A stretch of 64,000 nucleotides of DNA, taken from the NCBI GenBank assembly GCA_964016885.1, contig OZ024752.1, positions 17,112,001 through 17,176,000 on the forward strand, read 5' to 3'. Each line of letters opens with the position of its first letter. The first letter of the stretch is position 1. Under the pieces are notes generated by a model. That model had not been told where the DNA came from and did not search any database. It saw only the letters and a program-made list of their open reading frames with translations. Below, one piece after another: positions 16,711 to 57,031 of the stretch. The position numbers and the translations under genes were made by a program. The DNA comes from Eledone cirrhosa. Its lineage: Eukaryota.

Positions 16711-16790
16711 CTCCCTGATGACGCAATGAATTCGCGACAGTTATATTACGTAACTGTCTTTATCCCATTGCAGAAACTAATTAGTTGGAG
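16711..16790 (+). ncRNA. Type I hammerhead ribozyme (family B)
   Basis: CTCC-CTGATGA-CGCAATG...CATTGCA-GAAA-CTAATTAG-TT-GGAG. Palindromic stem III and inner helix GACAGTTA/TAACTGTC. Confidence 0.82.
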
Positions 16791-16964
16791 TGAAAATTTT
16801 AGTAAGTTAATTAAAAAAAATTTTTTTTAATTTTCTTATTTTACGTCTTTTATATTATTGTTCTGCATCCTCCTGCATTGAACCACCTAGGTACTATGAC
16901 ATAACCTGTGTATTTGCTGGCATTAGCGTACATATGTGCGCATATGTTAGTAGATATACTAAAT

Positions 16965-17162
16965 TCTCTCTCTTTCTTTCTCTCTCTCTCTCTCTCTCTC
17001 TCTCTCTCTCTCTCTCTCTCTCTCTCTCTCTCTCTCTCTCTCTCTCTCTCTCTCTATATATATATATATATATATATATATATATATATATATATATATA
17101 TATATATATATATTACTACATATATATTACTACATATATATATTACTACATATATATATATA
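16965..17162. repeat. (CT)n(TA)n compound microsatellite
   Basis: Direct reading. One of dozens of TA, CA, TATG and AAT tracts in the window. Confidence 0.95.
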
Positions 17163-20100
17163 TGTCCTGGGTATGACATTAAACTACATCTAGTGGCAAG
17201 GCTCCAGTTCGGGAGTTCAGGAGATGTGGGGAATGTGGAGTTACCCCTTAGTTGTCATGACTCCCAGGTCTGCCCTGGCCCGGGGTGGTAGTACCTGTTA
17301 GGGCTCCATTTATGGGTTAAATAACTACCTTATTCGAGTGGCGCCGGTAAGGTATTGTCAGCCATTGAAAAGAAATATGGAGAGTCGATCTAACAGCACT
17401 AGGGTTAGAGCCCCTAATTACACTGTCAAGGAGCAGCCTGGTCGTTATGACTCTGCTGGCTTAGAGCCACAGAGAGGGCCAGTGGATGATGGATCAGCTG
17501 TCCCTGAGACAAATATAAAGAATGCAGTTTTGTCCTGCAGAAGAGCCATCAAAATGGGCACTTTGAATGTGAGGACTATTCGAACGCTGGAGAAGAGAGA
17601 GGAGTTGGGACATCTGTTCGAGGAGAGTGGTATACAGATACTTGCGATCCAAGAACACAGGATTCTACACGATGAGCCCGTGAGGAGTGTGATGATCGGG
17701 AGGAAGAACCAGCTCATCACTACATCGGCAGTGAAGAACACAACAAATGCTGCAGTAGGAGGAGTGGGTTTTGTGTTCAGTGCAAAAACCAATCTGTTGG
17801 TGAGGGAAATAATGCCTATCTCCCCGCGAGTGTTGAGGGTGACCTTCAATGGAAACCCAAGACTGACAGTCATCTCAGCCTATAGTCCAACCGAGGGGGA
17901 CAGTGATGTGAATGCCGAGGAGTTCCATGAGGAGGTGTGTAGAGCTGTCAACACCACTCAGGCACACAATATCCTGCTTGTTTTGGGGGACTTCAATGCA
18001 CATCTGAGTAAGGAGGGCAGTGAAGATCCTTGCTGGTACGTCCATAACAACACCAACCGAAATGGAAGACTACTGAGAGACACCCTGCTGGAGGCGAACT
18101 TGATGGCGACCAACCTAGGGTTTAGGAAGAATCTGGGGGAAGATGTGGACCTACATCTCAGATATGCACCTGTCCAAGTCCCAGATTGATTTCATTCTGG
18201 TGAGGAAAAAGTGGCGGAATAGTGTTCTGAACACGGAACCATATAGCTATTTCAGTACACTGGGTAGTGACCACCGGCTTGTTATGAGTGAGGTCCGCGT
18301 GAGCTTAAGAAAGAGCAAGGCTCAGCCCCGGAGAACAATCTATGACTGGGGAGCTTTCAAGGAAGATGATAAGCTACAGGAGAGGTTCACAGTGGAAGTG
18401 AGAAACAGGTTTAGTGCTCTGTGTGGAGAGTCAGAGGAGAGAGAGATTGGATGGACTGAGGAGAGTGTGACGAGGAGGTACGGGCACTTCACCAATGCAG
18501 TGGCGAAAGCAAGTGAAACCCTGGTGCCGAGGAAAAAGAACAAAGGGAAGCACGTCAGCTCTGCAAACCCCAAAGTGTGTGCAGCCAGAGAACACCTGAA
18601 AGCTGCCAGGGACCAATTCTATGCTGATCCTACGGAGGAGAGGATGAAGACTGTGGAGGTGATGAGGGAGGAGCTCTGTGCCGCTTGCACTGAGGTCAGA
18701 GAGGAGGCACTGATAGAGAAGATCAGAAGTGTGGAGAGAGCGGTTGACAGATCTGGATGTAAGGAGAGCTGGATGATCATCAACGAGATCACAGGGAGGA
18801 AGAAAAGGTGTTCGAGTCAGATCCAGGGAACGGGGCCCGAGGATAGGAAGAGGAAATGGCTAGACCATTTTAGGACCCTACTAGGAGAGCCACCCTCCAC
18901 AGCTCAGAGCACTGGGGATATCAGGCGGCTGTTTGAGGAACTGGATGTTGAGACAGAGCCCTTCACCAGAGAGGAGCTTCAGAGAGCCAGGAGGAAGATC
19001 AAGGAGGGCAAGGCTCATGGAGAAGATGGAGTGGCATCAGAGGTGATGAAGAGGTGTGATTTTGATGATATCATCCTGGGGTTCTGTAACGGGGCACTGG
19101 AGAAAGGAGTTGCCCCGAATCAGTGGAGGATCAGTGGCATCGTCCCAGTGCCAAAGAAGGGAGATCTCTCTGGCACCAACAACTACCGGGGGATCTCACT
19201 GACGTCACTTGTGGCAAAGACCCTCAACAGGATGATTCTTAACAGGATCCAGCCTGAGATGGAGAAGAAGCTCAGGGACAACCAGAACGGCTTCAGAGAG
19301 GGTAGATCAACCACCAGTCACATCCTGATGCTGAGGAGGATATTAGAGGGAGCTAGAGCAAAGTGCCTTCCTGCGGTCATGGTTTTCATTGACTTTAGGA
19401 AGGCCTTTGATTCTGTGGACCGTTACTGCCTGATGAAGATCTTACAGGCTTATGGAATCCCCAAGAGGATAGTGGACCTGATATCATTGCTCTACACCAA
19501 CACCAAAGCCCAAGTCATTACACCTGATGGGATGACAGAGTTCTTTGAGATACTGGCTGGAGTGCTCCAGGGAGATACATTGGCTCCCTACCTTTTTATC
19601 ATCGTAGTGGACTATTGTATGCGCCTTGCACTGGAGAAACACCAGGACTCTGGCTTTATTGTAGCACCGGCTCAGAGCAGGAGAGTTGGGGCGAAAAAGG
19701 TATCGGATGCTGAATTTGCCTACGACATAATTTTGGTGACAAATACAGTGAAGGAGGCAGAGGATTTGATGCGGGAGGTTGAGACTGTGTCGATGAGTGT
19801 GGGGCTGAGAATGAATGAGACTAAAACAAAATATCTGGTAGAGAATGTTGAGAAGCCAGAGGGGATCACTAATGTAGGCGGGAAGCCGCTGGAATTGGTT
19901 GAGGACTTCCTGTATTTGGGAGCAAAGATTGGGAATGCGGAGGATGATGTGGTTGAGAGGAAGAGCAAGGCCTGGGCGGCGTGTCACAGCTTGAGATCGG
20001 TGTGGAAGTCGGACCTTCGTAGAGACCTGAAAATCCGCCTCTTCATTGCTGTAGTGGAGTCTGTGCTGCTGTATGGGTCTGAGACTTGGACACTGACCAA

Positions 20101-20473
20101 AAGACTCACTCAGATGGTGGATGGGTGCTACACGAGAATGCTAAGGATGGCTCTGAACATTAATCAGTATACACTGAGGATGAAAAACTCAGAGCTGTAT
20201 GGGAGCATCCCAAAAGTCAGCTCAAAAGTGACACAGAGAAGACTGAGGTTGGCTGGACATGCTCACCGACATCCAGAGTTGACATTGCACTCAGTGCTCC
20301 TTTGGGAGCCCCTACATGGACACACTAGAAGAGGAAGACCAAGGTTAACATATGTTGATGCCCTAAGGACAGACACTGGTTTGTTGGAGATGCAGGATAT
20401 GGCAGCGATAATGAGGGACAGAGACCGCTGGAGAGAACTCGTCCATGGATCTCGGGAATTTTACCCGCCTTAG
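17163..20473 (+). mobile_element. Near full-length RTE-X-like LINE, inactivated (one frameshift near 18130; FADD changed to FAYD)
   Basis: APE motifs GTLNVRT, AIQEHR, SAYSPT, GDFNAH and SDH; RT motifs NYRGISL, FIDFRKAFDS, LQGDTLAPYLF and EFAYDI; C-terminal RRGRPRLTY..DRDRWR. (TA)n on both sides. Confidence 0.9.
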
Positions 20474-20771
20474 ATATATATATATATATATATATATATA
20501 TATATATATAGGCGATGAATTAGTTTTGCGAGGTTTTTATATGAAATCGTGTGTCGAAACAAATATTGTTATACTTGGGGAGGGTCATATTTGTGTAATA
20601 TTGCCAGAATTAATAACAGAACACACTCACTGTTTGGTTGGTTTTCGCTTTTCGCTTCTCTGTCTTTTATATCGGTAATCTAATTTATTCGGTCCTCAAT
20701 GTTGCCATTGACTGACCAACGGTCAAAAATAATACAGATACAATATAGACACAAACACATATATATAGTTT

Positions 20772-20813
20772 ATCAAAGTTCTTTCGTTGCACATCTGCAA
20801 CATCGTCAGTGGT
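20772..20813 (-). ncRNA. Minimal PLE hammerhead (left arm)
   Basis: Reverse complement of 23165-23206. Confidence 0.6.
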
Positions 20814-55449: not shown

Positions 55450-55689
55450 ATTAAAGATATACCTATGTTCTGAGCGCTCTTTGTTGTTAATTGTATTACG
55501 GCTCTGTCCTCTGACATTGAGCTAACCATATACTGCCTATTTGATAAGTGGAGTGTTACACACTCCCAATTCTCTCCCTTATATATATATATATATATAT
55601 ATATATATATATATATATATATATATATATATATATATATATATATATAGACAGTTGAAAATTGCAAACTTGACTGTCACCACATATTA

Positions 55690-55728
55690 TGAACCTGAAG
55701 ATTGCGAAAGCATGAAAGTACTTGATCA
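55690..55728 (+). ncRNA. Minimal hammerhead motif
   Basis: TGAAC-CTGAAGA-TTGC GAAA GCAT-GAAA-GTAC-TT-GATCA. One mismatch in stem I and a palindromic stem III. Confidence 0.6.
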
Positions 55729-56482
55729 ATTAACACTTAGAATTTAATATTCTATCATACTATTTCATTATAATACCATTATAAATTTTAAAGGATTGTA
55801 AATAAAACGAGTAAATCAGACAAAGTTGGAATTCCTCTTATTAATATAATCTTCTATACACAATCATATACACCCGTGTATCTCTCTCTCTCTCTCTCTC
55901 TCTCTCTCTCTCTCTCTCTCTCTCTCTCTCTCTCTCTCTCTCTCTCTCTCTCTATATATATATATATATATATATATATATATATATATATATATATATA
56001 CATATGTATGAGACGTAGCTCCGTTTAATTGATTATTTGTCTAGTTAAGTGCTACGGGCTAAGAGGAAAAACTGGATACATTTTATCTTACTGATCCTCG
56101 GGGAGAATAGTCGGTATCATTTGTCTATTATTTCTTCGAAGTTACATTTAAAACTTATAGATCAGTTTAAATGATTATTTATCTAATTGATTTCTACGGA
56201 CTAGGGTGAAGAAAGATTGGGTGTATTTTATCTAATAATTCTTCAAACTTACAATTTTATATATATATATATATGTATATATATATACAAACATACATAC
56301 ATACTTTCACACACACACACACACACACACACACACACACACACACACACACACACACACACACACACACACACACACACACACACACACACACACACAC
56401 ACACACACACACACACACACACACACACACACACACACACACACACACACACACACACACACACATATATAATGTATATATA

Positions 56483-56590
56483 CTAGACCACCCGTGACCA
56501 GTTGGGTCACGTTCGTTTCAAAATATTTTTTAAATAATTAAAATATACACAGACATGTATATAATGTGAAATGGAACTGGAAGGCCCATA
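56483..56590 (-). mobile_element. Helitron 3' end
   Basis: Minus-strand hairpin CGTGACC-CAACT-GGTCACG, then GGTGGT-CTAG-T. Confidence 0.55.
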
Positions 56591-56951
56591 CATATATGCG
56601 TGTGTATATATATATAGGAACAAGTAAGACCCCGACGGCTGAGCTCAAGCCGTTTCGACGGCTAATTCTGGACTGTTCCTATTACCCACTCTACTACCCT
56701 AAGTATTGAGTACTTTGGTGCGTTATGGTCCACCTGGTTCCTTACCACTTTTCCTTCGTTATATATATATATATATATATATATATATATAAAGAATTAG
56801 TATATCTACCAACATATGTATACCTATGCTAGCAAATATATATGTTATGTCTTAGTAACTTTGTGGTTCTATGCAAGGGGATGCAGAACAATTATATGAA
56901 AGACGTAAAATAAGAAAATTATTAAAATTAACTTACTTACTAAAATTTTCA

Positions 56952-57031
56952 CTCCAACTAATTAGTTTCTGTAAGGGAATAAATATAGTTACGCAACGCA
57001 ACCATAGAAAAATCCTTACGTCATCAGGGAG
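56952..57031 (-). ncRNA. Type I hammerhead (diverged family B) within palindrome 56895-57170
   Basis: Minus strand: CTCC-CTGATGA-CGTAAGG...CCTTACA-GAAA-CTAATTAG-TT-GGAG. The plus-strand arm 57044-57170 is a 5'-truncated inverted copy. Confidence 0.83.

Follow-up and report, generated by a model that had tools for sequence, protein, structure and literature searches.

Hammerhead ribozymes of metazoan Penelope-like elements (PLEs) have a type I topology, a helix I of 3–5 bp and a palindromic helix III, and their numerous families are variable and show compensatory changes (Cervera and de la Pena 2014, PMC4209133; Craig et al. 2021, PMC8557442). The families are described as 'full of covariations' in PMC4209133, Fig. 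S3 of which contains 56 metazoan representatives according to its legend; the rows of this figure have a helix II of 3–8 bp with a loop of 3–9 nt. The descriptor of PMC8557442 has a helix II spacer of 7–17 nt, and a helix II called 'long' in PMC13725137 contains 6–8 bp. By contrast, two hammerhead families, A and B, in a 64,000-nucleotide stretch of the Eledone cirrhosa genome (contig OZ024752.1, positions 17,112,001–17,176,000; the window) have helices II that are 49–51 nt long and consist of two parts separated by an internal loop; this arm is two to three times as long as usual. The statement of the initial annotation that helix II of typical PLE hammerheads is short holds for Fig. S3, although the descriptors used had no means of detecting longer ones. 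Among PLE hammerheads, PLE-X1_sMoe from spike moss comes nearest, with a 9-bp helix II and a 33–34-nt loop, and it is marked as deviating.

The motifs of the window share with PLE hammerheads the type I topology, the short helix I and the palindromic helix III, in family B an unpaired base after A9, the U3-A8 variant, which occurs in family C of the window, and an arrangement of tandem and inverted copies. The PLE-X1_cBra motif has a C·A apposition at 10.1/11.1 and an extra A before G12, like family B, and the helices III of A and B resemble those of Hydra-clade PLE entries. Whereas the PLE motifs are described as being without recognisable tertiary contacts, families A and B have a candidate helix between the leader upstream of helix I and the helix II loop.

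Segmented helices II and base-paired loop contacts have been described in other hammerheads, and pseudoknots occur in all three hammerhead types (PMC3088659). The satCYDV-RPV(+) hammerhead (PMC1636495 Table 1; PMC7936874 Fig. 4D) shares with families A and B a long segmented helix II and a Watson-Crick pseudoknot between loops 1 and 2; however, it is a type III motif that has a stable 6-bp helix III and comes from the satellite circle of a plant virus, whereas the motifs studied here are type I, genomic and of the dimer type, and their pseudoknot is predicted. Hepatitis delta virus (HDV)-like type III hammerheads share a 5-bp proximal helix I and a 6-bp proximal helix II with a base-paired loop contact, but there helix I is the one capped by an extra hairpin, with a terminal loop 2, whereas here the cap is on helix II and the open end is formed by helix I. 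Among such pseudoknotted HDV-like motifs, that from termite cleaved at 0.96 per minute and that from toad at 0.05 (PMC7936874). The claim of the initial annotation that the window may contain an undescribed hammerhead subclass is too strong, because segmented long helices II and loop pseudoknots are in print for type III, and PLE-X1_sMoe also precedes it. No two-part helix II combined with a leader pseudoknot was found for a Penelope-type hammerhead in the literature, in which subscription papers were thinly covered. For every ingredient there is a precedent among other hammerheads; the combination present here was not found in print.

The five copies of family B in the window, three of them complete, and the associated features are as follows.

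16710–16791, plus strand: family B hammerhead of subfamily B1, with helix I ACUCC/GGAGU and core CUGAUGA at 16715–16721.
16723–16771, plus strand: two-part helix II of this B1 copy, with outer stem 16723–28/16766–71, loop strands 16729–35 and 16759–65, and inner stem 16736–44/16750–58.
16702–16707, plus strand: leader GAGAAU, predicted to form a pseudoknot with the helix II loop.
15728–15809, minus strand: inverted copy of the B1 hammerhead, with the loop strand AAUUCUC intact.
16171–16245, plus strand: B1 hammerhead, 5′-truncated within the core.
56951–57032, minus strand: family B hammerhead of subfamily B2, with helix II 35% diverged from that of B1 and every pair kept.
57045–57111, plus strand: inverted sister copy of B2, 5′-truncated in the outer stem, with loop strand AUUUCUC.
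15665–16975: family B insertion, an approximately 546-bp unit lacking open reading frames (ORFs), partially repeated in tandem and accompanied by an inverted copy; the insertion ends at (TC)n(TA)n.

The copies at 15728, 16171 and 57045 are additional to the two in the initial annotation. The motif at 16710–16791(+) reads ACUCC CUGAUGA C GCAAUG AAUUCGC GACAGUUAU AUUAC GUAACUGUC UUUAUCC CAUUGC A GAAA CUAAUUAG UU GGAGU. Its helix III is the palindrome ACUAAUUAGU, and cleavage is predicted after U16786 (GUU). Examination for a G10.1–C11.1 pair showed that A9 of family B is followed by C and then by a G–C pair, with an additional A before G12; in the 16710 copy, this places a C·A apposition, which had gone unmentioned, at 10.1/11.1 (16722/16772). 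G16734 is private to this copy, as the whole read depth of sequencing run X1 has T at the position.

Families A and B are very probably selected Penelope-type hammerheads with a two-part helix II. The leader, core, helix I, 3′ half of the core and helix III are identical in B1 and B2 (0 of 47 positions differ), which the initial annotation had noted for the core and helices I and III. By contrast, helix II differs in 17 of its 49 bases (35%), whereas the downstream flank differs in 16 of 133 (12%; p 0.0009), so that helix II has diverged approximately three times as much as the flank. All 15 pairs of helix II are nevertheless kept, four of them by changes on both sides and three by one-sided changes through G·U. 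Direct reading of both copies shows the change of the outer stem from GCAATG/CATTGC to GTAAGG/CCTTAC, and of the inner stem from GACAGUUAU/GUAACUGUC to UAUGGUUGCG/CGUAACUAUA; the RNA of the 56951 copy thus has the outer stem GUAAGG/CCUUAC and the inner stem UAUGGUUGCG/CGUAACUAUA around a 7 × 7 loop. The earlier description of helix II as rewritten yet paired is right about the pairing but overstates the change, since 32 of the 49 bases are identical, in register and without an insertion or deletion, and four of the six outer pairs are unchanged. When the 11 stem substitutions were placed at random, all 15 pairs were kept in 325 of 2,000,000 trials. Structures slid by 1–3 columns had 29–48% of their cells paired, compared with 98.7% in register. 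Only two lineages are compared here, and the evidence therefore amounts to seven covariation events and no more.

Sequencing reads contain further changes of this kind. Four public runs (of nine), which contributed 617, 2,883, 22 and 6 records, were aligned to positions 16640–16900; the search for runs used a family A stretch and the read alignment used family B. Material from the source of the window may be among the reads of X1 or X7. Among the variants listed (40 of 69 rows, unphased), partner changes are 16724C>T with 16770G>A, 16727T>G with 16767A>C, 16736G>T with 16758C>A, and 16738C>T with 16756G>A, as well as 16743A>T with 16751T>A in X5 and X6. The first four affect pairs that also vary between B1 and B2 and come from one of the organisms sequenced (read organism A), and the 16743/16751 change comes from two others (B and C). 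Read coverage is lower over helix II, and the match ends at 16732 in 393 of 784 X7 molecules; therefore, many copies carry other inner stems. The summed contig depth over the family B motif in run X1 is about 100,000–630,000, which is not a copy number. Selection on the pairing of the two-part helix II is supported by the simulation, the slid structures and the reads. The overall pattern may be either accelerated pairing-preserving change or a mosaic produced by template switching. G·U pairs favour the motif strand of B2, the helix II of which has a folding energy of −16.8 in sense and −9.8 in antisense. In four X1 contigs, at a loose end before 16759, a family-A-like GAAACCAUG is connected to family B sequence, which hints at hybrid families or at families beyond those in the window.

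Family A has the same layout as family B, as the initial annotation stated, and consists of four copies in the window.

33177–33250, plus strand: family A hammerhead, with helix I CUC/GAG, a helix II of 5 bp, a 7 × 7 loop and 5(+3) bp, and a GUA cleavage site.
33158–33176, plus strand: family A leader, in which the distal helix I strand 33158–33167 pairs with 33253–33262, followed by the loop 1 strand.
33833–33906, plus strand: second tandem copy of the hammerhead.
34489–34562, plus strand: third tandem copy.
32920–32993, minus strand: inverted copy, missing 9 nt of the 3′ strand of distal helix I.
32647–34775: family A insertion, a 656-bp unit without ORFs, partially repeated in tandem and accompanied by an inverted truncated copy, adjoining (TA)n.

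The helix II stems of family A, AUCCG/CGGAU and AGACA/UGUCU, flank a 7 × 7 loop. There is an A–U pair at 10.1–11.1 and no additional base, and the 33177 copy has the palindromic helix III ACCAUGGU. The two families are unrelated by the comparisons made: blastn finds no similarity between them, and a covariance model of family B, which recovers only its five training copies at E < 0.3, has no match to family A at E ≤ 5.

What is conserved in the internal loop of family B is a 5-nt motif, UUCUC, and not the 7 × 7 size. The loop is 7 × 7 in both B copies of the initial annotation, but B1 and B2 align without insertions or deletions, and the shared size is therefore inherited and not independent. 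It also varies in reads: five X1 contigs have an extra A behind 16728 (8-nt strand), one contig each in X5 and X6, which are from related organisms, has lost 16729 (6-nt strand), and a form with a loose end, UAAGG-CUUCUC-UAUGG, has a 6-nt strand between B2 stems in 218 reads (agreement 0.65). Only two of the six long-armed families of the window (A and B) have a 7 × 7 loop, and C–F have other layouts. The earlier proposal of a selected structural module is supported for the pairing but not for the 7 × 7 loop as a conserved module. UUCUC adjoins the inner stem in three of the five family B copies of the window, and the two exceptions have one private change each: G16734 in the 16710 copy and a C-to-U change in 56951, where the sister copy 57045 has C. 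The motif is also present in two loose-end read forms with different stems. The inner stems beside which it is kept begin in at least three different ways. Conservation is likewise good in the 3′ loop strand UUUAUYC, which has one variant among the rows listed.

The long helix II of families A and B probably serves to present an internal loop, the 5′ strand of which is predicted to pair with the single-stranded leader. The UUCUC of the family B loop is complementary to leader GAGAA (16702–16706), directly upstream of helix I. In family A, loop AGCUC (33193–33197) is complementary to GAGUU (33170–33174) in the loop 1 strand. By complementarity alone, both families could form 5–6 bp in the same register (dII−dI = +1), meaning that the distance from A9 to the start of the loop segment exceeds by one base that from C3 to the end of the leader segment. 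This register match arises with random leaders in 190 of 20,000 cases for B and in 156 of 20,000 for A. The best leader-loop helix is matched or beaten by 28 (B1), 186 (A), 671 (C), 17 (D), 672 (E) and 40 (F) of 1,500 background 16-mers, with a Fisher combined p of 0.002 over the six long families. No variant was found in leader positions 16700–16709 among the rows listed. Keeping the leader free costs 0.3 kcal/mol in family A, which with GAGUU free has a 10-bp distal helix I and a 9 × 2 loop, and 4.9 kcal/mol in family B, where the leader can join distal helix I; the stacking of the leader-loop helix is predicted to contribute −8.1 (A) and −9.4 (B) kcal/mol before loop penalties. The initial annotation suggested a tertiary contact as one role of the extension, and the predicted pseudoknot is a concrete candidate for it.

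Several observations weigh against the pseudoknot. The leader window, loop boundaries and thresholds were picked after the pattern had been seen, which makes the p-values optimistic. No double change occurs in the five pseudoknot pairs in three copies and the read rows listed; three of the five pairs never vary, one wobbles and one is broken in the 16710 copy, and family A has no diverged copy in the window. Families C and E have no significant leader-loop helix, and E has none of at least 4 bp; the contact of D would involve the terminal loop and that of F the opposite loop strand, each in another register. The HDV-like type III motifs pair through a segment at the 5′ side of their helix I loop; by our reading, this is the other strand. 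The loop of family B is not significantly more conserved than its stems (2 of 14 against 11 of 30 positions, p 0.17), and helix II of B1 folds equally well on the opposite strand (−18.2 vs −17.4). The nested minimum free energy (MFE) fold of family B places the leader in distal helix I, and the unconstrained MFE fold pairs core bases as well. Distal helix I could explain the conservation of the B leader without a pseudoknot, which is the main alternative; since the read rows skip 16804–16900, its partner strand is not seen in them. On balance, we consider formation of the leader-loop pseudoknot in A and B slightly favoured; that it both forms and promotes cleavage is a tentative proposal, with somewhat less than an even chance. 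A pairing of the leader to both loop strands, as in H/ACA-like structures, fits A (AUUUU/AAAAU and GAGUU/AGCUC) but not B and competes with the 10-bp distal helix I of family A; it was not adopted.

If the pseudoknot forms, the 5–6-bp leader-loop helix would keep helices I and II in a parallel alignment and replace the canonical contact of loop 1 with loop 2. The inner hairpin would serve as a cap, free in sequence but paired so that the loop stays internal. In transcripts of tandem units, the palindromic helices III of two hammerheads would pair to form a double hammerhead, as proposed for the Penelope class (PMC4209133; PMC6765202). The self-duplexes of ACUAAUUAGU (family B, −9.0 kcal/mol) and ACCAUGGU (family A, −11.2 kcal/mol) make pairing between two copies possible. 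The repeats would be copied by an autonomous Penelope-like element.

The pyrimidine-rich internal loop could instead be a protein site, for example for a chaperoning Penelope reverse transcriptase (RT)-endonuclease, with the leader kept only for distal helix I, where the MFE fold puts it in family B. The hammerhead of the Anolis element PAc cleaved only when the protein of the element was added and was dispensable for insertion in vitro (PMC11167929). A protein site would also account for the well-kept UUUAUYC strand, left unexplained by the pseudoknot, and for the faster divergence of helix II, as a specificity element might show. However, the loops of A and B differ (AAGCUCU/UAAAAUA and AAUUCUC/UUUAUCC) although both are complementary to their respective leaders in a shared register, and the RT start sites of PAc define a terminal tail, whereas helix II of family B is about 200 nt from the 3′ end of its unit. 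We consider this reading unlikely.

It is rather unlikely that the extension is a tolerated appendage, the pairing of which is merely kept by selection or by hairpin-driven template switching of DNA or cDNA, with the loop size and leader complementarity being coincidental. Four of the ten hammerhead families in the window do have a short helix II and the long ones vary in layout, about half of the X7 molecules continue past 16732 into varied inner stems, AU-rich 5-mers commonly pair with one another, and the tests are post hoc. Template switching, however, would yield perfect complements and erase the loop, whereas G·U pairs and an unpaired loop persist; UUCUC is kept beside different inner-stem starts, and A and B match in register.

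As a brake or switch, the pseudoknot would hold the monomer uncut for full-length reverse transcription and be bypassed in the double hammerhead. Inserted copies keep the DNA upstream of the cut site, and uncut RNA was therefore reverse transcribed, as for PAc. The GUU cleavage site and the C·A apposition at 10.1/11.1 of family B are both expected to be slow. The satCYDV-RPV(+) hammerhead combines a segmented long helix II with a loop 1–loop 2 pseudoknot, an alternative tertiary structure reportedly attenuates its cleavage, and it reportedly requires a double hammerhead. Nevertheless, pseudoknots between helices I and II are activating where tested in type II hammerheads, the HDV-like motifs with such a pseudoknot cleave, and a palindromic helix III already limits monomer cleavage, making a second brake unneeded; this role is quite improbable. 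Hairpin repair at the DNA level as the sole cause of the changes in helix II is disfavoured by the G·U pairs and the persistent loop.

The repeat units of families A and B resemble non-autonomous Penelope-like elements or retrozymes: each is ORF-less (longest stop-free frames of 65 aa in A and 72 aa in B), contains one type I hammerhead, and is inserted at microsatellites in partial tandem with an inverted 5′-truncated copy, an arrangement of Penelope-like insertions (PMC8557442). Animal non-LTR (long terminal repeat) retrozymes (PMC7229834; bioRxiv 10.64898/2026.07.22.740005) also consist of ORF-less tandem units with one type I hammerhead and low G+C; they are likely derived from Penelope-like elements, and the unit sizes of 546 and 656 bp are within the 51–972 bp of the preprint. 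Classical retrozymes, unlike A and B, are about 300 bp long, with canonical 6-bp and 4-bp helices and non-canonical loop contacts. No ORF with RT and GIY-YIG domains is present in the A and B units, the PLE protein of the window has no tblastn match in them, and their comparison with the 3′ region of the PLE of the window gave no match beyond 14 nt. The helix III motifs of A and B were not found in the consensus files of Craig et al. (PMC8557442). The families were considered as the missing hammerheads of Naiad elements ('HHR_half_core'), but no Naiad ORF is linked to them and their motifs are not in the Naiad consensus file. Junctions of 5′ truncation or inversion occur in or adjoining helix II of families B and C at 16171, 57045, 56617–56674 and 52000–52050, and the 16171 junction shows a stutter of core sequence. 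The helix II hairpin may stall reverse transcription at these junctions.

Pattern scans elsewhere fixed helix I and therefore say little about absence. In viral contigs, the long-armed pattern had seven loci, none with a closing helix II, and the B-like pattern had none. Metagenomes yielded 114 loci (from 122 stretches), of which 19 had at least three closing pairs and none was convincing; the best, L092, resembles by eye the terminus of a bacterial transposase gene followed or accompanied by a hairpin. Two loci in GTDB are both chance matches.

The window is repeat-rich, with microsatellites, several ORFs of non-LTR retroelements and a pair of Penelope-like fragments. Descriptor scans recognised ten hammerhead families, all of type I, with a core of the form CUGANGA ... 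GAAA ... UH (in a U3-A8 variant in family C) amid three helices and open at helix I; helix III is short in nearly all of them, and mostly palindromic. The main scan gave 17 matches, compared with 0–1 per block-shuffled window (four in total over 20 shuffles); those at 53826 and 60591 are probably chance matches, and families D and F come from a second scan. A core scan allowing one mismatch found no additional motifs in the window, and no transfer RNA head was found. Six of the ten families (A–F) are long-armed, with 31–61 nt between A9 and G12, and four have a short helix II of 12–20 nt (55404/54252, 35949, 29066 and 20774/23167). The remaining long-armed families and a short one for internal comparison are as follows.

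13770–13863, minus strand: family C hammerhead, with the U3-A8 core variant and a 54-nt helix II with an asymmetric internal loop.
37025–37082, plus strand: family D hammerhead, with a 31-nt helix II and terminal loop AUACG complementary to leader CGUAU.
36339–36396, minus strand: inverted copy of family D.
40269–40339, minus strand: family E hammerhead, with a 36-nt imperfect helix II and an 8-bp helix I.
32344–32429, plus strand: family F hammerhead-like motif, with a 61-nt irregular, weakly folded helix II; the least certain of the set.
20774–20811, minus strand: ordinary minimal hammerhead with short helices, behind the Penelope-like RT-endonuclease fragment 21090–22403(−).

The extended helices II attributed by the initial annotation to 13770, 32344, 37025 and 40269 exist (54, 61, 31 and 36 nt from A9 to G12, respectively), but none has a 7 × 7 loop. 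In the family C motif at 13770–13863(−), helices II and III are both long, and a diverged 3′ half of its kind is present near 52000–52050. In family D, at 37000–37082(+), the terminal loop is the exact complement of the leader, which resembles a simpler version of the contact predicted for A and B.

The best longer relative of the Penelope-like ORF 21090–22403 is an Octopus vulgaris protein (63% identity), which suggests a cephalopod or another mollusc as the origin. The region 20563–23415 contains this RT-endonuclease fragment within a 1-kb inverted repeat of 99% identity, together with the ordinary short hammerhead. A 77-nt segment of this Penelope-like tail (20516–20591) recurs with 84% identity upstream of the family E hammerhead (40527–40603). 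A second, broken Penelope-like element at 58879–60200(−) has a GIY-YIG domain (Pfam E 3e-7), and no hammerhead was recognised behind it. The sole host-type gene noticed, at 48901–50316(−), is an unbroken frame of 471 aa that encodes a glycosyltransferase family 11 domain (E 9e-41) as well as a stalk of threonine-rich repeats. Unrelated 28-bp minisatellites with 71 and 14 copies occupy 29520–31486 and 50793–51182.

It is conceivable, although somewhat unlikely, that families A and B represent an overlooked, very abundant subclass of dimer-type Penelope hammerheads, in which the internal loop is locked to the 5′ leader, which had at least two origins in one genome, and the stems of which diverge three times faster than the element while remaining paired, as would be expected of an identity tag that is specific to subfamilies and subject to diversifying selection. 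Descriptors with a short helix II and Rfam miss whole high-copy families, which in the window are six of ten. No hammerhead family is among the 51 Rfam matches to the window at E ≤ 1, which are microsatellite-driven microRNA and similar matches, and the short-helix motifs of the window were missed as well. The contact, if true, bears on how Penelope-type hammerheads are switched on or held off. A base-paired contact between leader and loop would provide an RNA-only route to activity for Penelope-type ribozymes, which have been described as barely active without protein.

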